This document shows positions 1-42,351 of a stretch of 42,351 nucleotides of DNA, one piece after another. Made by a program: the position numbers and the translations under genes. The notes under the pieces were generated by a model. That model had not been told where the DNA came from. It made no database searches and was given only the letters and a program-made list of their open reading frames with translations. The stretch comes from Escherichia phage vB_EcoM-ep3, in the sequence record NC_025430.1; one strand, given 5' to 3'. Within the stretch, counting starts at the first letter, position 1; the number at the start of each line of letters is the position of its first letter.

Positions 1-27
1 AAAAAAAAACCCCGCCATAACGGCGGG
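1..27 (-). terminator. intrinsic terminator downstream of ssb
   Basis: Hairpin CCCGCC-ATAAC-GGCGGG (11-27) preceded on + strand by A9 (1-9), i.e. followed by a U-run on the - strand transcript; lies just 3' of the SSB stop. A near-identical hairpin recurs at 42328-42344. Confidence 0.7.
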
Positions 28-51
28 TTGATTACTTAGAATGATTTGGAA

Positions 52-537
52 TTAAAACGGGATGTCATCGTCAAAATCCATCGGCGGTTCGTTCGCTGGT
101 GGTTTCTGTTGGCCGCTGTGGGTTGGCTGCTGCGGCTTACCCCATCCGCCTTGCTGGCCGCCCTGGCTTTGCCCACCGGCCTGGTTATCGTTGGCCGCTG
201 ACAGCATCAACAACCGGCCATTCATGCCCACCACGATTTCAGTTGTGTAGCGATCAACGCCAGCCTGGTCCTGCCACTTGCGCGTTTGCAGCGCGCCTTC
301 AATGAACACCTTGCTGCCTTTGCGCAGGTACTGGCTGGCGATTTCTGCCAGCTTTCCGAAGATGACCACGCGGTGCCATTCCGTTTTTTCTTTCTTCTCC
401 CCTGTCTGCTTATCCTTCCAGGTTTCAGACGTGGCAATTGATAACTGCGCCACGCCGTTGCCGTTCGGCAGCGTGCGGAATTCTGGATCGTTGCCTAAGT
501 TGCCAATGATTTCTACTTTGTTCAGTGAACCGGCCAT
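52..537 (-). CDS. ssb: single-stranded DNA-binding protein
   Basis: 161-aa ORF; SSB-like N-terminal region, Gly/Gln-rich linker ([15 protein letters not shown]) and acidic C-terminal tip DFDDDIPF typical of bacterial and phage SSB. Confidence 0.93.
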
Positions 538-2381: not shown

Positions 2382-3524
2382 TTAAGCCGCACCAACCAGG
2401 TGGGCGTTTTTGTTGGCGTGCCACGCTGGCAGGCTGATGGTCTGGATTTTATCGCCGTATCCAGGCCAAACACCTGTGCGCACGCATTCAGCGTAGACAC
2501 GCAAATCATGCTGGTATTGTGCGCGGCCAATTTCTACGCCTTCGCTATCCAGTACATAAACACCAACTGCGTAAGGCGGTTTTTTCTCAACGGCGATAAA
2601 CGCAAAGTGTTTAGGATAACCACGCCAGAAATCAGGGCGGCAGCGGCACAGAACACCGGTCACCGGATCAGTCCAGTAAACTGATAATTCTGCTTTGCCT
2701 TCGTGCGGAGGCGTGCACTTGCCCTGTTCCAGAGCCAGACGCGTGCCGTCCATGTAGTATGCGTGTTGCACGTCATAGCGCCAGTTGGCGATTGATTTTG
2801 CGAACCCTTCCGGGCTGGCATCTTCGGTGGTTTTCAAGTCACCAATGATGTCTTTGACGTGGTGCAGGATAGCGAACGCTGCCGGATGATTCATTACCGC
2901 GTCACGCATGGCAAAAATTTGTTCAAACGCTTCCGGTGATAGCACTTTGCGTTCGCTGTTATTGCGCTGCCATTCTTCCAGCACATCTGACCACAGTGTG
3001 ACTTCAACGCCGTTGGCGCGCAGCAGGTTGGCCAGCTCATGACGGCTGCCGCTGGTGGATAGTTTGCCAGGACGGTCAATATTCAACTGGTTGATGATTT
3101 CTTTCAGGTCTGGCGCTTTCATCGCGTTAAGCTGTTCAGTAGTCCAGGTTTCAACAGGCTGGTTTTCCAGGATGCGTTCAACCAGTTCGCCTTTGTTGCC
3201 ACCAGTCAGCAGCTTAGGCAGGCGGCCTTCGTTCAGCTTGTTGACCATTTCCACCAGCACTTCACGGTCATCAATAGCATCAGGCACATCAGGACGGCGC
3301 AGCGCCAGGCAATAGGTTTTTGCGAATTCTTCCGGTTCAAGAATTGCCATATGCACAGCCGTGCCGATTTCCTGCGCTGGTGTTGGCGTGCGGTCATTAG
3401 CAGCAGTCACAACAGCGTTGTAGTGCATCGGGCTGCGGTGCACCAAATCCAGGCCAGATTTACTGATGCCTGGTCCGCCGTGGTATTCAGCGTTGGGAAT
3501 ACCTTCGTAAACTCCTGGTTTCAT
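2382..3524 (-). CDS. PD-(D/E)XK-type nuclease (phage exonuclease-like)
   Basis: About 380 aa; N-terminal GIPNAEYHGG...SKSGL motif typical of phage RecB/Cas4-like exonucleases; start moved to ATG at 3524 (MKPGV) with GAGG 8 nt upstream, rather than the longer ORF-track start at 3539. Confidence 0.7.
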   Translation of the reverse strand: MKPGVYEGIPNAEYHGGPGISKSGLDLVHRSPMHYNAVVTAANDRTPTPAQEIGTAVHMAILEPEEFAKTYCLALRRPDVPDAIDDREVLVEMVNKLNEGRLPKLLTGGNKGELVERILENQPVETWTTEQLNAMKAPDLKEIINQLNIDRPGKLSTSGSRHELANLLRANGVEVTLWSDVLEEWQRNNSERKVLSPEAFEQIFAMRDAVMNHPAAFAILHHVKDIIGDLKTTEDASPEGFAKSIANWRYDVQHAYYMDGTRLALEQGKCTPPHEGKAELSVYWTDPVTGVLCRCRPDFWRGYPKHFAFIAVEKKPPYAVGVYVLDSEGVEIGRAQYQHDLRVYAECVRTGVWPGYGDKIQTISLPAWHANKNAHLVGAA

Positions 3525-3575
3525 TATGTTACCTCGCAATTATTATTTAACATGAATTCGGATTAACTGCGGTGA

Positions 3576-3797: not shown

Positions 3798-5216
3798 ATG
3801 GGCGTAATACTTAGGGACTATCAATCCGACATTATCAATAAGGCGCGCCTTTCTATGCGGCGCAACCGCCGCGTGTTATTGCAGGCACCAACAGGCGCGG
3901 GCAAAACTGCGCTGGCGTCATACATGGCTGGGGAAACATCGGCCAAAGGCCAGCAGGTGTGGTTTATTTGCCACCGCGCTGAACTGGTATTACAGACCAG
4001 TTTGACATTCAGGAAGTTCGGCATTGACCACGGCTTTATTGCCGCAGGCTATCCCATGAACCTGCGCGCCGGGGTGCAGGTGTGCAGCATCGACACCCTG
4101 AAAAACCGCCTGCACACCCTGCCAGCTCCTAAGCTGGCCATCATGGACGAAGCGCACCACTGTGGCGCGGCTGGATGGGCGCGCGTCAACGCCTGGCTGT
4201 TCGAGAATGGCGCGTATGTAATCGGCCTGTCAGCCACGCCAAAGCGCCTGGACGGCACCGGCCTGGATGACCACTTTGATGACATCGTGTTGGGGCCATC
4301 GGTGCGCTGGCTGATGGATAACGGCCACCTGTCTGATTATCGCATGTTCTGCCCGGACATCCCTGACATGAAGGGTGTACGCAAACAGATGGGCGATTTC
4401 TCAAAAGGAGAAACCGCCGAGAAGATGGATAAGCCGAAACTAACCGGCAACATCATCAGCCACTGGCTGAAATACGCCAGGGGCATGAAAACGGTTGGCT
4501 TTGCGGTCAACATCGCGCACAGCCGCCACTTAACGCAGGCATTCATTGATTCAGGCATCCGCGCCGCGCACCTGGATGGCGGCACCGATAAGGCGGAACG
4601 CAAGCGCATCATTCAGGACTATGCCAACGACAACCTGGATGTGATTTTCAACGTGTCGCTGTTCGGTGAAGGTTTCGACCTGTCAGCTATCGCACAGACT
4701 GACGTGACGATTGACTGCCTGATTGACGCGCAGCCCACACAATCATTGTCGCTGGTTTTGCAGAAAGATGGCCGCGTGTTGCGACCGTCCAAAGGCAAAA
4801 CCGCCATCATCCTGGACCACGCAGGCAATGCGCTGCGTCATGGCTTCCCTGACGATGAACGGGAATGGTCACTGGCTGGCGATGATAGCGGCAGCAAATC
4901 CAGCAGTGCTGGTGGTCCACCGCCGCCAGTCATCTGCAAAGGCTGTTTCAACGCCATCCGCCGACCACTGCCGCCGAAGTGCCCGCACTGCCAGAAGGAA
5001 CTACAGGCCGAAGCCAAAGAAATTGAAGTGGCAGAAGGAGAACTGCGCGAAATGGACGAACGCGCCAAAGAAAGCCTGCGCGCCAAGATGAGGCGCGAGG
5101 AGGACGCTTGCAAGGATATTGGCGCACTTACTGCCCTGGCGATGAAACGCGGGCTGCCGAACCCATCAGGGTGGGCCATAGCGAAGATGGGTGGAAGAAG
5201 ATTTAAGCGCAAATAG
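3798..5216 (+). CDS. superfamily-2 DNA helicase with C-terminal zinc ribbon
   Basis: 472 aa; motif I LLQAPTGAGKT, motif II AIMDEAHH (DEAH-like), GLSATP motif III, C-terminal CKGCF...CPHCQ zinc ribbon. Confidence 0.85.
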   Translation: MGVILRDYQSDIINKARLSMRRNRRVLLQAPTGAGKTALASYMAGETSAKGQQVWFICHRAELVLQTSLTFRKFGIDHGFIAAGYPMNLRAGVQVCSIDTLKNRLHTLPAPKLAIMDEAHHCGAAGWARVNAWLFENGAYVIGLSATPKRLDGTGLDDHFDDIVLGPSVRWLMDNGHLSDYRMFCPDIPDMKGVRKQMGDFSKGETAEKMDKPKLTGNIISHWLKYARGMKTVGFAVNIAHSRHLTQAFIDSGIRAAHLDGGTDKAERKRIIQDYANDNLDVIFNVSLFGEGFDLSAIAQTDVTIDCLIDAQPTQSLSLVLQKDGRVLRPSKGKTAIILDHAGNALRHGFPDDEREWSLAGDDSGSKSSSAGGPPPPVICKGCFNAIRRPLPPKCPHCQKELQAEAKEIEVAEGELREMDERAKESLRAKMRREEDACKDIGALTALAMKRGLPNPSGWAIAKMGGRRFKRK

Positions 5217-5320: not shown

Positions 5321-5989
5321 ATGGCACGTTTAACCGCTGCAATCCGTGATGGCATCATTGCCAACGCAATCAAAACCAAAGACTTTGCAGGCCGTGACAT
5401 GGCTATTGTTCAGAAGCGCGCTGATTTTGCTGAACGTCTGCGCAAGTATGCGCTTGCACAATATGGCCTTACTGATGCGCGCCTTATTGAAATTAAAAAG
5501 CAGATTGAAGAACTGCAAAACGAAGTTAAGCACGAAGGAGCAAGGTTCGTTCGAATTACTTTTGACTCAACTAACCGTGCTTGGGATGTGAACCTGGCAG
5601 GACAGGCGCGCAGGCTTTATCTTGATGGTACTTGTTCAGGGGAAAGCGTAAAACCGCTTTATAGTGATTCACGCGTAGAATACAGCGACGATAAAATTAC
5701 TCCACATTTCCATGAATCTGATTTCACAGTGCGCGATCCTAAATGGCGCGAAGAACTGGACGCCATTGACCTGGAAGCGGCGCAACTGCGTGAAGAATAC
5801 AACACGCTTAAATCAACACTGGCAGCGACAATTTCAGGATTCACGACGGTGGAAAAACTTCTGGAAGCCTGGCCAGACGCGAAAGAACTGATTCCAGAAA
5901 CAACGCCGATTGCTAAACATCCAGGAACAGGCATTGCGCTGTCGGTAGCTGAACTTAACGCGCTGTGTGGAATTCCTACCGGAAAATAA
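5321..5989 (+). CDS. hypothetical protein
   Basis: ORF trimmed to ATG 5321 (MARLTAAIRD) with AAGAGG 10 nt upstream; coding-like composition, coiled-coil-like central region; no family recognised. Confidence 0.55.
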   Translation: MARLTAAIRDGIIANAIKTKDFAGRDMAIVQKRADFAERLRKYALAQYGLTDARLIEIKKQIEELQNEVKHEGARFVRITFDSTNRAWDVNLAGQARRLYLDGTCSGESVKPLYSDSRVEYSDDKITPHFHESDFTVRDPKWREELDAIDLEAAQLREEYNTLKSTLAATISGFTTVEKLLEAWPDAKELIPETTPIAKHPGTGIALSVAELNALCGIPTGK

Positions 5990-8134: not shown

Positions 8135-10444
8135 ATGAGTGCACAACAAAACTATAAGGATTTGACCGAACAGGAAATTGCAGAAGCACTTTCCTACATC
8201 GACGCCGGTTGCGACCGTGAAACATGGGTGCGCATGGCGATGGCGGTTAAATCGGAACTAGGCGACGGCGGTTTCACCGTCTGGAATGACTGGTCACGCC
8301 AGTCTGACAAGTACAACAGCAAAGACGCGCGCGACACCTGGAAATCAGTGAAGCGTCACGGCGGCATTGGCATTGGCACCCTGATTGGTGAGGCGCAGCA
8401 GTTCGGCTTTTCCCTGAACGATGCAGAACGCACGCCGCTGACAGCGGAAGAAATCGACGCACGCAAGCGCAAGCGCGAAGCCGAAGAAAAGGCAGAGCAG
8501 CAGCGCCGCGCCGAACGTATGGCGCAGGCAGCCGAACAGGCGCGCAACATATGGGAATCAGCCACCGAACTGGAAGGCGATGAACACCCCTATTTGCAGC
8601 GCAAGCAGGTGCAGGCGTTCGGCCTGCGCGTTGGGCGGTTCTGGACCGAAAAGCGCAGCATTGATGGTGCGCTACTGGTTCCTGTGCGTAACATTGACGG
8701 GCAGATCACCAGCTTGCAGGCCATCTTCCCGAACGAAAACCCACAGCTAGGGCGTGACCGTGATTATTTGCCTGGCGGCCAGAAGCGCGGATGCTTCCAC
8801 GTCATAGGCGGCAAGCCGACTGGCGGAAGCCCGGTTATTGTCATCTGTGAGGGCTATTCAACCGGCGCGTCAATCCACCAGGCAACCGGCTACTGCGTTG
8901 TAGTGGCGTTTGATGCCGGTAACGTTCCGACCGTGGCCAAGTTGATGCGCCAGCAGTTCGGACGCGCAACAATTGTTGTGGCAGCCGATAACGACCAGTG
9001 GCACGAAGATGGCAAGCAAAATGATGGCGTTCACTACGCGCGCCAGGCCGCAACCACATGCGGTGGCCTGCTGGTGGTTCCGAAGTTCGCCGCATTAAGC
9101 GACAAGCCGACCGACTTTAACGACCTGCACAACCTGCAAGGGCTGGCAGAAGTTAAGCGGCAGATTAACGCCGCAATACCTGAACCGGCAAATGACAACT
9201 TTCTGCCGCTGGATGCAACGGTCAACCCGTTCATGTACCCGCACATGAGCCACCAGCAAAAGCCATTAAGCACCTGGGAAAACCTGGAATGGCTGCTGGA
9301 ACAGTACGGCATCACGGCGCGATATAACGAAATCAGCAAAGATGTGGTGGTGACCATTCCAGGGCGTGACTACGGCGTTGACGCTGCGGCCAACTGTTCC
9401 CTGGCGGAAGTTTCCAGCCTGTGTGCCCGCAACGGTATGCCAAAAGGTGATGTGGGCGACTACATCAAGCTGATTGGCGTGGCCAACCGTTACAACCCGG
9501 CTGCTGATTTCATCACGTCACGGCCATGGGATGGCGTCAGCCGCATTTATGACCTGGTTGACACCCTGACCACGCCGGAAGGCTTTGACCGCAGCCTGGT
9601 GCTGATGATGGTGCGCCGCTGGCTGATTTCTGCCGTGGCTGCCGTCATGAAGCCAACCGGGTTCTGGTCCAAAGGCGTCCTGGTGTTACAGGGTGACCAG
9701 TCATTGGGGAAAACGTCCTGGTTTAAAGCACTGCTGCCGCCGACCATGCGCGACCTGGTGAAAGATGGCGCGACCATCGACCCTAGCAACAAAGACAGCG
9801 TGACCACCGCGATTGGCCACTGGATGGTTGAGCTGGGCGAACTAGATGCAACGTTCCGCAAGGCTGACATTGCCAGGCTGAAATCCTTCATCAGTTCTGA
9901 CGTGGACATGCTGCGCCGCCCTTATGACCGGCTTGAATCGAAGTACCAGCGCCGAACGGTGTTTTTTGCGTCAGTGAACCCCAAACACTTCCTGGCCGAT
10001 GACACCGGGAACGTTCGCTGGTGGACCATTCCGGTGACCGGCGTGAACTACGCCCACGACATCGACACGCAACAGTTATGGGCAGAAGTGGCGCAACTGT
10101 ACCGTGACGGCGAACGCTGGTGGCTGGATCGTGATGAAGAAGCCATGCTGGAAGGCGTCAACAAGGAACACGAATCCATTGACCCGGTAGAGGAAATGAT
10201 ACTGGCGCGCTTTGAGTGGGGCAGCGAACGCATCAGCGCCTACCGCGAACATACCGCCAGCCAGGTGTTGCAGGAAATCGGATTTGATAAGCCGAACAAG
10301 TCACAGGCCACGCATTGCAGTAACGTGCTGCGCAAGCTGACCGGGCAGGAACCGCGCAAGACGAAAAACGGGCGGTTCTTCAACCTGCCGCCGAAGGTGT
10401 TGCAGCCGGATTACCGGCGACCAGATGACAATTCACCGTTTTGA
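8135..10444 (+). CDS. DNA primase-helicase (P4 alpha-like)
   Basis: 769 aa; N-terminal primase-like region, TOPRIM-like acidic motifs (VIVICEGYSTG, VVAADNDQ), C-terminal NTPase region with Walker A QGDQSLGKTS; size and domain order match P4 alpha-type primases. Confidence 0.88.
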   Translation: MSAQQNYKDLTEQEIAEALSYIDAGCDRETWVRMAMAVKSELGDGGFTVWNDWSRQSDKYNSKDARDTWKSVKRHGGIGIGTLIGEAQQFGFSLNDAERTPLTAEEIDARKRKREAEEKAEQQRRAERMAQAAEQARNIWESATELEGDEHPYLQRKQVQAFGLRVGRFWTEKRSIDGALLVPVRNIDGQITSLQAIFPNENPQLGRDRDYLPGGQKRGCFHVIGGKPTGGSPVIVICEGYSTGASIHQATGYCVVVAFDAGNVPTVAKLMRQQFGRATIVVAADNDQWHEDGKQNDGVHYARQAATTCGGLLVVPKFAALSDKPTDFNDLHNLQGLAEVKRQINAAIPEPANDNFLPLDATVNPFMYPHMSHQQKPLSTWENLEWLLEQYGITARYNEISKDVVVTIPGRDYGVDAAANCSLAEVSSLCARNGMPKGDVGDYIKLIGVANRYNPAADFITSRPWDGVSRIYDLVDTLTTPEGFDRSLVLMMVRRWLISAVAAVMKPTGFWSKGVLVLQGDQSLGKTSWFKALLPPTMRDLVKDGATIDPSNKDSVTTAIGHWMVELGELDATFRKADIARLKSFISSDVDMLRRPYDRLESKYQRRTVFFASVNPKHFLADDTGNVRWWTIPVTGVNYAHDIDTQQLWAEVAQLYRDGERWWLDRDEEAMLEGVNKEHESIDPVEEMILARFEWGSERISAYREHTASQVLQEIGFDKPNKSQATHCSNVLRKLTGQEPRKTKNGRFFNLPPKVLQPDYRRPDDNSPF

Positions 10445-15033: not shown

Positions 15034-15551
15034 TGGATAAATACGCTACTCCTGTGAAACTCATTGTGGCGATAATCATCGCCTTTGCGCTGGTATCCTT
15101 CGGGTATGTATCAGGGTTCAGCAAATCAGATCGTGAATGGCAGGCCAAATGGTCTGCCCGCGATGCTGCTGACGCACAGGCACGCCAGCAATTTACCGAA
15201 CAACAACGCCGCATTGAAATACAGCGGCAGGGGGCTATTGATGCTATTCAGGAACAAGCACAGCAGGACATTGCTACAGCACAGCGTAATGCTGCCATTG
15301 CTGCTGCTGAGTCTAAGCGCCTGCAAGACGGTATCGCAGACGCCATCACCAGACTACAGGCAGATAGCGGCAATCCCGGCGCTACCATCAGCAGCAAGAC
15401 AAGGGCCAGCACCAGCAGCCTGCTTGCCGAGTTGTTCAGAGAGATTGACGCAGCAGCGGGCATCTATGCAGCAGAGGCTGACAGGGCAAGAGCCGCAGGG
15501 CTGACCTGTGAACGGGCTTACGACGCAGTGAGAGCGACATCACAACAATGA
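15030..15551 (+). CDS. i-spanin (Rz-like)
   Basis: 173 aa; N-terminal transmembrane helix then Q/A/R-rich coiled-coil periplasmic domain; ATGA overlap with the endolysin. Confidence 0.75.
   Translation: MMDKYATPVKLIVAIIIAFALVSFGYVSGFSKSDREWQAKWSARDAADAQARQQFTEQQRRIEIQRQGAIDAIQEQAQQDIATAQRNAAIAAAESKRLQDGIADAITRLQADSGNPGATISSKTRASTSSLLAELFREIDAAAGIYAAEADRARAAGLTCERAYDAVRATSQQ
15289..15504 (+). CDS. o-spanin (Rz1-like lipoprotein) embedded in Rz in the +1 frame
   Basis: Internal ATG at 15289 gives MLPLLLLSLSAC (lipobox LSAC) followed by a proline-rich mature region; fully nested in the Rz gene. Confidence 0.65.
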   Translation: MLPLLLLSLSACKTVSQTPSPDYRQIAAIPALPSAARQGPAPAACLPSCSERLTQQRASMQQRLTGQEPQG

Positions 15552-15715
15552 AAATATTTTCACGCACGACGCAAATAATGCTTGACATCAGCCGAAGTCG
15601 AAAAAGTCAAGGTACTTCCGAGGGGGGTACAGCCTGCGGGGGCATTGGTCCCGCCTAATTCGCGTTGTGCGTGGATAATCAAAATCGATTTTAGCATTAG
15701 ATAAGGCGGCATTAA
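15552..15715. other. candidate cos/packaging-site region
   Basis: ORF-free 164 bp between the spanin stop and the Nu1-like small terminase start; contains G-rich element GAGGGGGGTACAGCCTGCGGGGGCATTGGTCCCGCC (15621-15656). Position matches lambda cos (inference only). Confidence 0.3.
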
Positions 15716-16240
15716 TTGGCTAAAACAATAAAAGGCCGAACAGTAAACCGCAGCGGCCTGGCGGAAGTTTTCGGGGTAGCACCGCCAACAGTTGACCAGT
15801 GGCGAAAAGACGGCGCGCCCTACGTAACACTTGGCGGGCGTGGTAAAGAATGGGAGTACGACACCGCGCAGGTGGCGGCCTGGTTGCGTGAACGCGATGT
15901 GAAGGCGGCCACCGGCGACGTGATGGCGGATGAAACGGAATTGAAGCGCCGCAAGCTGGCAGCCGAAACCGAAAAAGCAGAACTGGAACTGGCCAAAGCC
16001 AAAGGCGAAGTGGCACCACTGGACCAGGTTGAACGCGCCGTTGCCCGCGCCTTCGCGGAAGTGCGCGCCGGGATGCGCAACCTGCCACAGCGCACCGTTT
16101 CAATGCTTATCGGTGAAACCGATGAACGCCGGTTCAAATCGGTGATGATGGGCGAAATTGACGAAGTGCTGAAATCACTGGTGACCGCTTCCCTGCTGGA
16201 TGGCTATGACGAAGGGGGCGACGGTGACAGCGAAGAATAA
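15716..16240 (+). CDS. terminase small subunit (lambda Nu1-like)
   Basis: About 174 aa; N-terminal HTH (LAEVFGVAPPTVDQWRKDGAPY) and overall layout resemble lambda Nu1; TTG start at 15716 after AAGGCGG (start uncertain); 3' end overlaps the large-subunit gene. Confidence 0.78.
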   Translation: MAKTIKGRTVNRSGLAEVFGVAPPTVDQWRKDGAPYVTLGGRGKEWEYDTAQVAAWLRERDVKAATGDVMADETELKRRKLAAETEKAELELAKAKGEVAPLDQVERAVARAFAEVRAGMRNLPQRTVSMLIGETDERRFKSVMMGEIDEVLKSLVTASLLDGYDEGGDGDSEE

Positions 16241-40240: not shown

Positions 40241-40548
40241 AAGGCGAACTGAAAGCCGGTGGCCTGGCGCTGGTGATTGGTAACAACCCGCACGCTGGGA
40301 AGTGTGTAACGCTGGTTCGTTTTGTAACCCCTGGCCAGATGTTTAACATTCCTACAGGCGGAGAGACTTTCTTATCTCTGAAAGCCGATGCCTCATGGTT
40401 GGTGACCGGAAATGTTTATCCAAAAGGATGTGAACATGATCAAGGCTGGTCGCTTTTTGCGCCAAGATGCCTGCTGCCAATCGACGGCGACGACCACCAG
40501 GAACAGGAACAACTAACCAAAGACAAACCAGCCGAACTGACGGCGTAA
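40237..40548 (+). CDS. hypothetical protein
   Basis: 103 aa; ATGA-coupled to the ParB-like gene. Confidence 0.45.
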   Translation: MKGELKAGGLALVIGNNPHAGKCVTLVRFVTPGQMFNIPTGGETFLSLKADASWLVTGNVYPKGCEHDQGWSLFAPRCLLPIDGDDHQEQEQLTKDKPAELTA

Positions 40549-40557
40549 GGGGCATAT

Positions 40558-40779
40558 GTGAAACTGCGAAAAGTGGATGTGAAAGGAACCTATAACATCA
40601 GGTTCATCATTTCGATGACGGCAAGTGATGGCCGTGAGGCGTGCTGGTATCTTGAAACAGTAGAACGTTCTCTGAATAAAGCAGATAAGGGGAACTGGCG
40701 TAATGCAATAGCAGCCGATCTGCTACGAGGACGCCAGGCGCTGCGTGACATTATAAACAACCTAGCCGGTGAGGCGTAA
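40558..40779 (+). CDS. hypothetical protein (GTG start)
   Basis: 73 aa; GTG preceded by GCGTAAGGGG, the same context seen before the next gene. Confidence 0.4.
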   Translation: MKLRKVDVKGTYNIRFIISMTASDGREACWYLETVERSLNKADKGNWRNAIAADLLRGRQALRDIINNLAGEA

Positions 40780-40788
40780 GGGGATAGT

Positions 40789-40968
40789 GTGGAAGAAATA
40801 GAATACGTTGTAACACTGAAAATGGAAGATGGCGCGATGTATGAGGCTTTACGCGCCACCGCAACCAAAGATGGTGATCTATCTGTGCAGGCACCAGACC
40901 AGGAAGCCCTACTGGCAGTCCTGGATAAGATGCAGGAAATGATAGATTATATCCGTGAAAACATGTAA
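40789..40968 (+). CDS. hypothetical small protein (GTG start)
   Basis: 59 aa, frame checked; GTG preceded by GCGTAAGGGG; followed by a strong terminator. Confidence 0.35.
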   Translation: MEEIEYVVTLKMEDGAMYEALRATATKDGDLSVQAPDQEALLAVLDKMQEMIDYIRENM

Positions 40969-40973
40969 CACAC

Positions 40974-40998
40974 AGCCCGCCTCTTCGGCGGGCTTTTT
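40974..40998 (+). terminator. intrinsic terminator
   Basis: AGCCCGCC-TCTTC-GGCGGGCT hairpin followed by TTTTT. Confidence 0.8.
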
Positions 40999-41003
40999 GT
41001 TGG

Positions 41004-41030
41004 TGGCGACCCAGGAAGGAATCGAACCTG
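41004..41030 (-). other. tRNA 3'-end-like fragment (T-loop, acceptor 3' strand, CCA); candidate att core
   Basis: - strand reads CAGGTTCGATTCC TTC CTGGGTC G CCA: canonical T-loop, 7-nt acceptor strand, discriminator and CCA, but no matching 5' acceptor strand (GACCCAG) or D/anticodon arms upstream. Confidence 0.5.
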
Positions 41031-41571
41031 TAACATACAGCTTATACTACCTGCCGCAGACGCGCGAGGCGATGAATAAATGGGAAATATTGTTGCGAAA
41101 TGCACTTGCGTGATATAGGATTAAATTGTCAGTTGTAGAGATTCACGCTGTCGAGAGATACACGATGACCGCCGTGAAAGGACGGCACACAACAGGTAAG
41201 AGCATTGAACCCGTAGACCTCGCGGATTTGGTGAAAGGTGCCGCGCATTGCTCTTTCCGTTGTGGTGAATGCGCAGGCTGATGCGCGACCAATGTATAAA
41301 CAGCGCTCATGGCAAGCAGTAACCAATCTGCGCCTCAAGACAGCGTCACTGGTAGTGCGGGCGCTCTAACCAGTAAGCCGGAGTTCAGCACCGGCCACCA
41401 CAACACGCGCCGTGATGCGCTTTTGCGAACACTTCCAACCACCAGGGTGTTACCTCGCAACGTGAAAGCGCATCGCAGTGCGACATTCGCACAGACTGGA
41501 ACTTACCAGACTAGTGATTCCAATAAGGCAGGTGATCTGTATCTCGCATCACAGCGTCACGTGACACAAAA

Positions 41572-41592
41572 CCCCGCTTAGGCGGGGTTTTT
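41572..41592. terminator. bidirectional intrinsic terminator
   Basis: CCCCGC-TTAG-GCGGGG hairpin flanked by ACAAAA upstream and TTTTTCTTT downstream; lies just 3' of the - strand SprT-like gene and at the end of the + strand ORF-poor region. Confidence 0.75.
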
Positions 41593-41598
41593 CTTTGG

Positions 41599-42270
41599 TC
41601 ATTCGTCATCGCCTTCCGGAGTCATCGCGCCATGTTCCGGGCAGTGAGGCGGCCCGACCTCCAACCATTTTTGCGTTACCCGAACCGTGTAGCCGCATTC
41701 CTGGCATTCGCATTTTTTCAGCCTGGTGGTTTGCTTAGGCTTCGCCGTGGACGCACCGCCGACCGGTGCCACTTCGATTTCCTCCCCTTCATCATCGTCA
41801 CCGCCTTCATCCAGGCCGATGCGCAGGCGTGGCACTTTTATGGATATGCCACGGTCAAACGTCAGCTTGGCGTGCGGCATGGGGCCAAGTTCGTCCAGGA
41901 ACGGTTTGACGTACTCTTTGAATTTCTCGCCAGGCGTGGTGGCGGTCATCGGTCCATTCAGGCCAACAGCCTTGCACACAGTGGCAAACGCGCCCTTGTG
42001 GCCACAGTCAAAACCAACGGTGGCGTGCGTCAGTTCGTGCCACAGGTGGTTTGCGACCAGGTACGGTTCCACCTGGTCTGGCATGATGAATATTTCAAAG
42101 GTGTTGTCTGCACTGCACTTGCTGTGCCAGCACTGTGCCGCCGTACTGGACCGCGCGCCGCTGCTGCAAAAGCCAACTGACACCCGGAATTTTGGCATTT
42201 CATAGCCGAATTCTTTAAAACGCGGCGCAAACTTCGCCGCCAAAGCATTTAACCAACCTTCACGGTCCAT
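41599..42270 (-). CDS. SprT-like zinc metalloprotease with C-terminal zinc ribbon
   Basis: 223 aa; HExxH motif (WHELTHA) after a basic N-terminal region, acidic linker, C-terminal CECQECG...HCPEHG zinc ribbon; GAGG RBS and a perfect TATAAT (rc of 42306-42311) upstream on the - strand. Confidence 0.55.
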   Translation of the reverse strand: MDREGWLNALAAKFAPRFKEFGYEMPKFRVSVGFCSSGARSSTAAQCWHSKCSADNTFEIFIMPDQVEPYLVANHLWHELTHATVGFDCGHKGAFATVCKAVGLNGPMTATTPGEKFKEYVKPFLDELGPMPHAKLTFDRGISIKVPRLRIGLDEGGDDDEGEEIEVAPVGGASTAKPKQTTRLKKCECQECGYTVRVTQKWLEVGPPHCPEHGAMTPEGDDE

Positions 42271-42322
42271 ATATATTTCCTCTCAATGCGTTTAAACGTG
42301 TTTAGATTATACAAAGGCAAAG

Positions 42323-42344
42323 AAAAACCCGCCATAACGGCGGG
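42323..42344 (-). terminator. intrinsic terminator for a - strand transcript entering from beyond the window
   Basis: CCCGCC-ATAAC-GGCGGG hairpin (42328-42344) preceded on + by AAAAA; 22-nt near-identical to the terminator at 1-27. Confidence 0.6.
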
Positions 42345-42351
42345 GTGGTTA

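Follow-up and report, generated by a model that had tools for sequence, protein, structure and literature searches.

Near one end of the genome record of Escherichia phage vB_EcoM-ep3 (NC_025430.1; 42,351 nucleotides (nt), analysed at full length and referred to below as the window) lies a minus-strand gene for an SprT-like zinc protease of 223 amino acids (aa), which an initial annotation had described as a stand-alone metalloprotease gene with its own promoter and terminators. The elements of this gene and its immediate surroundings are listed here by their window coordinates.

41599..42270, minus strand: coding sequence for the SprT-like zinc protease with linker and zinc ribbon, 223 aa (open reading frame list; PHROG 6361 match); by sequence reading, start codon ATG at 42270-42268 and stop codon at 41601-41599
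41866..42270, minus strand: protease domain, aa 1-135, with HELTH at nt 42025-42039 (aa 78-82) and H91 at nt 41998-42000
41746..41853, minus strand: acidic disordered linker, approximately aa 140-175 (predicted local distance difference test score, pLDDT, <50 for aa 152-170)
41623..41745, minus strand: basic arm (KPKQTTRLKK) and zinc ribbon C189/C192/C210/H213, the predicted DNA-binding domain (conservation; pLDDT ~90)
42279..42284, minus strand: ribosome-binding site (RBS) GAGAGG, 8 nt before the ATG (sequence reading; a purine-rich block is kept there in relatives)
42289..42298, no strand: operator-like palindrome CGTTTAAACG, its core GTTTAAAC being at 42290-42297; placed 8 nt past the -10 and ahead of the RBS, it covers the probable start site
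42306..42311, minus strand: -10 hexamer TATAAT (sequence reading)
42328..42344, minus strand: intrinsic terminator of the upstream operon of the single-stranded DNA-binding protein (SSB), a GC hairpin and T-run, then TTTTTCTTTG (terminator scan; an annotated terminator in Mica)
41568..41591, no strand: bidirectional terminator hairpin, 8 nt past the stop codon (terminator scan; bidirectional terminators in the same place in Mica)

The SprT-like locus and its promoter palindrome

The protein consists of two domains, a minimal SprT/Spartan/Wss1-type zincin with an intact HExxH...H signature, followed by a basic arm and a zinc ribbon. The open reading frame (ORF) exists as first proposed, and its start codon matches that of all homologues, with N-termini reading MDRE or MNRE in the 45 homologues compared. 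The predicted HExxH core and C-terminal zinc ribbon are likewise upheld: H78, E79, H82 and H91 are invariant in these 45 sequences and also in 10 diverse homologues, and the ribbon residues (C189-x2-C192...C210-x2-H213) are invariant in the 45 close homologues. Besides the active site, the best-conserved region across phyla is the arm that precedes the ribbon, KKQ(T/S)TR(L/M)xK, and residues K179, Q180, T182, R183, K186, C189, G193, R197, C210 and P211 are unchanged even when compared with the actinophage homologues. An AlphaFold2 model built from the 45-sequence alignment (pLDDT 87.5) comprises a compact unit of aa 1-135, a disordered acidic linker and a small ribbon, and partial Foldseek matches to the ribbon region are zinc ribbons. 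The linker varies in length and is lacking from many homologues (the alignments show it missing in R26L, Tweety19, L078, L086 and L067), and it is dispensable. An earlier idea, that the linker is a site of self-cleavage, was weakened by the many homologues that do without one.

To examine the region before the gene, the gap between the SSB gene and the SprT-like gene was aligned from eight phages, extending down to 44% protein identity and including Bas97, PT1, Arya, KA2-1, MQ-4, Persinger and Mica. The terminator, a -10-like hexamer, the invariant GCGTTTAAAC, the RBS and the ATG all keep their positions while the other positions have drifted, and the pairing of the terminator stem is maintained by compensatory changes. 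Across relatives the hexamer (TATAAT, TAGAAT, TACAAT or CAGAAT) lies 7-9 nt upstream of the motif. No -35 is recognisable, because the terminator hairpin occupies its position, and a consensus promoter scan did not call a promoter before the SprT-like gene. Hence, of the promoter originally proposed, the TATAAT and the RBS (GAGAGG) are borne out and conserved and a full consensus promoter is not, whereas the terminators proposed on both sides were each found by a terminator scan, the upstream one being conserved in the eight phages. Since it is the layout that is conserved, support for the promoter and terminators goes beyond matching to a consensus, and the comparison supports the view that the SprT-like gene is an independently transcribed, insulated unit, cut off from the SSB operon by a conserved terminator.

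The most informative feature of the locus is the operator-like palindrome between the -10 and the RBS, which the initial annotation had missed. The 10-mer CGTTTAAACG occurs once in the window, and its core GTTTAAAC occurs at 4 sites, compared with ~0.5 expected. The three other core sites are intragenic and fall in structural genes (17809, 23776 and 26768); because two of them are common to phage ECOO78, which has no SprT-like gene, these intragenic sites have the appearance of inherited coding sequence, not of functional sites, and are uninformative. Outside of the window the motif was surveyed in 80 IMG/VR loci (592 kb in total) that had been found through the protein. In 61 of the 80, including nearly all loci with ≥40% identity, GTTTAAAC lies within 130 nt upstream of the homologue's start. 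The 592 kb contain 151 copies where base composition predicts 4.4 (~34-fold), and 74 of these fall within the 130 nt upstream of the gene, a density of 7.1 per kb there versus 0.13 per kb elsewhere. Among 52 non-identical upstream contexts the core 8-mer is invariant and the flanks have drifted, with C before it (73%) and G after it (73%).

In about a dozen loci there are two copies of GTTTAAAC approximately 34 bp apart, one over the -35 (TTGCGTTTAAACG) and one after the -10, which is a classic repressor layout. At L018, L022, L026 and L031 the distal operators are split, GTTTCC-AAAA-GNAAAC (e.g. GTTTCC-AAAA-GTAAAC), and overlap TTGC(G/A)TTT; these sites suggest GTTT/AAAC half-sites that may tolerate an 8-bp spacer. 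Literature searches with the motif returned only cloning and primer noise, and its link to the gene appears to be undescribed in the searchable literature.

Association of the motif with the gene across phages

The motif GTTTAAAC accompanies the gene family in phages of Gamma-, Beta- and Alphaproteobacteria and in low-GC metagenomic phages, and, as GTTTACAC, in phages of Actinobacteria. It is kept despite different synteny at L036-L043, at L051-L062 and in Alexa. A conserved operator-like site lies over the gene's own core promoter and its presence co-varies with that of the gene, the pattern expected of autoregulation. Features outside of the window on which this comparison draws are the following.

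ECOO78 (L093/L225), 15294-15719: HNH-type endonuclease, 141 aa, in the slot of the SprT-like gene
Tweety19 (L090), at 5904, 6789, 7857 and 11915: repeated promoter modules
Honk (L004), at 3918, 5558, 5974 and 6306: repeated promoter modules

One case of joint loss is ECOO78, a sibling Jilinvirus with 96% nucleotide identity to the window overall, in which the slot after SSB is filled by the HNH-type endonuclease; its 8.5-kb locus has no SprT-like gene and no motif. ECOO78 is a natural swap in which gene, promoter and motif were removed together, and the SprT-like cassette is accessory and replaceable. Actinophages furnish a second comparison. In Tweety19 there are 10 GTTTACAC sites in 12.6 kb (0.12 expected), mostly inside repeated promoters; four of them share the layout ACTTGCG-N17-TAGACT-GTTTACAC, with a fifth as a variant, and these precede genes among which is the SprT-like one. 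Honk carries 8 GTTTACAC sites in 8.6 kb, 5 of them within a repeated promoter's spacer. The related phages BaileyBlu (Cluster FP) and Kalimba retain the neighbouring sigma-like gene and the serine integrase, lack the SprT-like gene, and show no site in 16.6 kb and 16.8 kb, respectively. As the partner of the motif, the actinophage sigma-like protein gp43 was considered and rejected, since BaileyBlu and Kalimba keep gp43 without the motif. The Honk module reads ACTTGCG..GTGTAAACGCGTGTA, and the actinophage modules stand before several small genes in the interval from the sigma-like gene to the serine integrase. These modules are probably the ‘repeat sequences (data not shown)’ of the Cluster AZ preprint.

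The association was also approached from the motif side, by searching IMG/VR with the pattern GTTTAAACG-N22-28-GTTTAAACA and with a composition-matched pattern as control. The motif pattern was found in 115 stretches versus 13 for the control, and a family member is encoded at 35 of 114 motif-first loci versus none of the 13 control loci. Because many of the 115 matches are redundant copies of a few lineages, the data were re-analysed by lineage. There are 28 of these, and the 7 that bear an SprT-like gene have a median of 0.75 extra sites per kb compared with 0.05 in the rest (Mann-Whitney p = 8e-4); the four lineages with the densest motif all carry the gene. In dense SprT-bearing lineages (L112, L184, L078, L083 and L086) GTTTAAAC reaches 1-2 per kb, ~50 times the expected number, with 19 sites in 11.7 kb of L112 and 20 in 10.2 kb of L184.

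All-versus-all clustering of ORFs, in search of another neighbour that might bind the motif, found no other ORF family in more than 31 of 84 loci and none beyond the Jilinvirus synteny group, with the caveat that the crude ORF caller erred on some high-GC loci and may have missed small helix-turn-helix (HTH) proteins. That the motif is a CI operator was also considered and rejected, the motif being absent from the divergent region between exonuclease and helicase in the window, and the window having no cI.

Family relationships and genome context

When searched as a single sequence against Pfam, NCBIfam, PADLOC and PDB sequences (PDB also as a profile), the window protein returned nothing usable. 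Its SprT-like identity is nevertheless correct, being reached through relatives. The PF10263 profile, whose gathering score is 25.6 bits, is matched below threshold by 36 of the 45 relatives (best E 1e-4); Tweety19 scores 19.1 bits and R26L 19.7, and L078, at 26.4, is the only one of these three above the gathering score. Comparison of the family profile with E. coli SprT/YggI by hhalign gave a probability of 58% and E 1e-4 over 63 columns ending at the HExxH, and the protease domain has the fold of Spartan/Wss1 proteases. Published annotations agree: Mica gp31 is a “putative SprT-like protease” from an HHpred match to 6MDW, and Lizalica gp46 matched 4JIU by Foldseek and Spartan by HHpred (>99%). 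As the query itself fails PF10263 and L078 passes its threshold, membership in the SprT-like superfamily holds only transitively, the family being a divergent branch. The Peptidase_M78 (ImmA/IrrE) profile matched only 3 of the 45 members, at E 0.07, and Foldseek against PDB gave nothing significant.

PHROG 6361, a family of unknown function, matches the window protein at E 2e-74, and homologues were found by tblastn in 162 phage records. Approximately 115 Arthrobacter and Microbacterium phage records have a homologue, and those listed are labelled “SprT-like protease”. As many as 4,477 representatives of clusters at 50% identity match the family at E ≤ 1e-3, and 1,852 at E ≤ 1e-30. The gene is an ordinary further member of a known and annotated phage family.

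The closest known systems are the actinobacteriophage ‘SprT-like protease’ proteins (Lizalica gp46, Tweety19 gp45 and Honk gp51), which belong to the same family (PHROG 6361), with 38-41% identity over 94-98% of the length. Like the window protein they combine protease, arm and ribbon, are encoded near an integrase and have a related motif in promoters; they differ in lacking the acidic linker, in having Ser for one ribbon Cys, and in having the asymmetric GTTTACAC as their motif, in five or more promoters rather than one. E. coli SprT (YggI; PF10263 and PF17283) likewise has an HExxH...H zincin followed by a C-terminal zinc ribbon, to which the phage family adds the conserved KKQTTRxxK arm, an inserted helical segment and the linker. 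PF17283, the SprT zinc ribbon, matched neither the query nor its homologues, and the CxxC...CxxH ribbon, confidently modelled, is predicted to be analogous to that of SprT in architecture. In contrast to human SPRTN (PDB 6mdx/6mdw), the phage protein has no SHP, PIP or UBZ motifs, and whereas Spartan reads DNA structure and not sequence, the comparative data suggest sequence-specific binding for the phage family. The archaeal minigluzincins (proabylysin, projannalysin and selecase) are single domains with no DNA-binding module, unlike the phage protein, and Wss1/WLM differs in its use of SUMO and Cdc48 adaptors.

With regard to genome context, the closest relatives of the window phage are the Jilinvirus-type myoviruses ECO1230-10, PT1, Arya and Bas97, and the neighbours of the gene become apparent only once the window is closed into a circle.

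10..27, minus strand: imperfect repeat of the 42328..42344 terminator hairpin, at the opposite end of the window (sequence; both ends map to a single Bas97 hairpin)
52..537, minus strand: SSB gene, the immediate upstream neighbour on the circle (PHROG 44, E 1.6e-58)
748-1143, 1365-2354 and 2382-3539, minus strand: further upstream genes, the last being exonuclease VIII

The last 950 and first 2,355 bases of the window map contiguously onto Escherichia phage HeidiAbel_Bas97. A single terminator hairpin region is represented twice, at window positions 1-33 and 42319-42351, in imperfect copies that show homopolymer differences, and in all relatives the hairpin is single. The window is the genome of a Jilinvirus-type phage in circular permutation, and its two ends indicate that the contig is circular, with termini that are redundant and error-prone. 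SSB and the SprT-like gene flank the contig junction, and ECO1230-10 has its record cut at approximately the same place. It follows that two parts of the initial annotation were artefacts of the cut: the position at the window edge, and the claim that the gene stands on the opposite strand from all nearby genes, given that the upstream genes for SSB, a PHROG 13898 protein, a RecA-like ATPase (PHROG 1366) and exonuclease VIII share its strand. The SprT-like gene is the last gene of a leftward early arm (exonuclease VIII, RecA-like ATPase, Xis-like HTH, DksA-like protein and SSB).

In PT1, Arya, KA2-1 and MQ-4, SSB is followed by a 97-nt gap and then by the SprT-like gene, and the same order with a short gap is found in Bas97, Persinger and Alexa. 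The recurrent order is exonuclease, ATPase, Xis-like HTH, hypothetical protein, DksA-like protein, SSB, gap, SprT-like gene, convergent integrase and tRNA-Arg, and all or a large part of it is shared by Bas97, PT1, KA2-1, MQ-4, Persinger (Pseudomonas), Mica (Burkholderia) and Alexa (Acinetobacter), as well as by about half of the 80 IMG/VR loci. In the examined relatives from several host genera the gene is a syntenic element of the early recombination/SSB arm beside the integrase. The earlier idea of an independently expressed cargo gene therefore survives as an independently transcribed accessory cassette, without its strand argument, and as part of a syntenic and large family rather than as an odd moron.

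Compared with its temperate relatives (Bas97, PT1, KA2-1 and MQ-4), the window phage no longer has the integrase, tRNA-Arg or the CI-like repressor. Approximately 70 bp of the 3' end of the integrase remain near 41046-41118, in a loss region of ~40560-41600. No integrase adjoins the SprT-like gene in Arya or, within the fetched flank, in ECO1230-10, and the whole genome of ECOO78 is without an integrase or a CI-like repressor. Like ECOO78, the window phage looks to be an obligately lytic derivative, and ECO1230-10 is probably another. Scans of 40400-42351 for tRNA and Rfam families found no genes, and only sub-threshold terminator-like matches. As a separate observation on this region, the non-coding segment 41263-41400 (140 bp) has 96-97% identity to unannotated DNA in 258 E. 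coli genomes and in many unrelated lambdoid and Stx phages, with no Rfam or tRNA match; in the one genome examined its counterpart is part of a prophage immunity region, where it is flanked by the repressor side and the N antiterminator gene.

Possible roles of the protein and its palindrome

We favour, with a probability of roughly 0.55, the reading that the gene encodes a self-repressed, sequence-directed and DNA-bound protease that is possibly tied to lysogeny control, the case for binding being purely comparative. The arm and zinc ribbon would most likely bind GTTTAAAC, probably as a dimer on GTTT/AAAC half-sites. We name the SprT-like protein as the likely binder because it is the only factor common to all of these phages, and it is also the most economical choice, since a host factor would need to be conserved from Actinobacteria to Proteobacteria. 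The palindrome would then be an operator on which the bound protein blocks initiation, such that the protein would repress its own promoter and keep a DNA-activated protease low and buffered. By analogy with Spartan, DNA binding may direct the protease to proteins that sit on the same DNA, or to itself, and switch it on. In the window phage the sole strong site for such a protein would be the gene's own promoter, whereas other lineages would offer ~1 site per kb and the actinophages at least 5 promoters. Purely as an analogy, the protease-coupled repressors (LexA/CI of the S24 type, ImmR-ImmA and DdrO-IrrE) may work alike, in that an operator-binding module joined with a protease converts a DNA signal into derepression under autoregulation, although their protease folds (serine S24 or M78) are unrelated to that of the phage family.

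The sole experimental hint at a biological role, a connection with lysogeny, comes from Cluster AZ. According to the AZ preprint these phages are temperate, no immunity repressor was identified in them, and the SprT-like protein is one of four DNA-binding candidates; in the same source Arthrobacter phage Liebe, with a natural frameshift that truncates the protease domain, forms clear plaques, and the near-identical Maureen forms turbid ones. The Liebe frameshift with its clear plaques, together with the distribution of the motif over multiple promoters in AZ actinophages, points to a regulator-protease in lysis/lysogeny control rather than defence cargo. In the Jilinvirus lineage, on the other hand, the cassette is on this reading a self-limiting accessory module, its sole promoter site being the gene's own.

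Several observations weigh against the favoured reading. Liebe and Maureen also differ at three further positions. A CI-like repressor is already present in temperate relatives such as Bas97, and the window phage keeps the cassette after losing cI and integrase; as the cassette outlives both, the gene is not the immunity repressor in the window lineage. The second Cys of the ribbon is replaced by Ser in actinophages, a Foldseek search of the model against PDB found nothing at E ≤ 0.001, and PF10263 does not match the window protein at E ≤ 1. Among the 28 pattern-bearing lineages, 21 have no SprT-like gene in the fetched stretch, yet these are also without extra sites. Finally, in the dense lineages the motif occurs in intergenic and coding DNA, often abutting start or stop codons and forming the apex of terminator hairpins, and in L112 a cluster of four sites (8552-8649) lies between a TerS-like gene and a small ORF, with TerL next. 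A simple operator model does not explain these coding and terminase-region sites.

One alternative that we regard as possible, albeit doubtful, is a generic Spartan/Wss1-like DNA-dependent protease that clears crosslinks or roadblocks (e.g. trapped topoisomerases or recombinases) from replicating or recombining phage DNA, with GTTTAAAC bound by some other factor and serving only to set the time of expression. The fold and motif do resemble Spartan and Wss1, and the gene adjoins SSB, a RecE-like exonuclease and a RecA-like ATPase in Jilinvirus-type phages, stands among DNA polymerase and helicase genes in R26L and the actinophages, and adjoins tyrosine or serine integrases, which form covalent DNA intermediates. 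Left unexplained, however, is an 8-bp word that follows the gene across phyla and vanishes with it, no other shared factor having emerged from the ORF clustering; moreover phages without integrase keep the gene, and ECOO78 dispenses with it. A protease for anti-defence or host takeover, which like the metalloprotease domain of ArdC would bind DNA and degrade restriction complexes or nucleoid/silencing proteins, seems improbable to us. Phage ArdC-like and SprT-like zincins have been proposed to target host proteins (PMC7824862), and both the early-region position of the gene and its accessory, replaceable slot would suit that role.

We give very little credence to an ImmA/IrrE-like anti-repressor that cleaves the phage CI-like repressor to trigger induction. 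A metalloprotease beside an integrase at a prophage end does recall ImmR-ImmA-Int modules, and the AZ data tie the family to lysogeny, but beyond the poor Peptidase_M78 match there is no HTH gene adjoining the SprT-like gene in the window or in the relatives examined, the gene is kept in the window phage and in ECO1230-10 without an integrase (in the latter, within the fetched flank), and the clear plaques of the Liebe frameshift are the opposite of what loss of an inducer should produce. Equally remote is a defence or superinfection-exclusion moron expressed by the lysogen, which would bind incoming phages rich in GTTTAAAC and silence them or cleave their proteins. Its own promoter, the flanking terminators, the prophage-end position and the replaceable slot would fit such a gene, and lineages with ~1 motif per kb would be its natural targets; those dense-motif phages, however, encode the protein themselves, the window phage retains the gene despite the loss of integrase and cI, and no PADLOC defence family matches the window protein at E ≤ 1. 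We found nothing that points to the defence role entertained in the initial annotation.

By itself the gene adds nothing new, since it belongs to a widespread phage family already labelled “SprT-like protease”; what lends that label a directly testable function is the 8-bp word to which the gene is tied across bacterial phyla. If the favoured reading of a self-repressed, sequence-directed protease is true, Spartan-type proteases would gain a sequence-directed branch in bacterial viruses, temperate actinophages without an identifiable repressor would gain a candidate, and the motif would become a genomic marker for the regulon in thousands of phage genomes. More tentatively, and at less than even odds, the family as a whole may be a new class of sequence-specific regulator-protease that reads GTTTAAAC (GTTTACAC in actinophages) and represses its own and, in some phages, many promoters, with a Spartan-type protease that, on a DNA signal, would cleave either itself or a DNA-bound neighbour. 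Were that so, the SprT-like protein could be the missing immunity repressor of Cluster AZ/EH-type actinophages, and in phages with ~1 motif per kb it could be a genome-wide DNA-marking factor.

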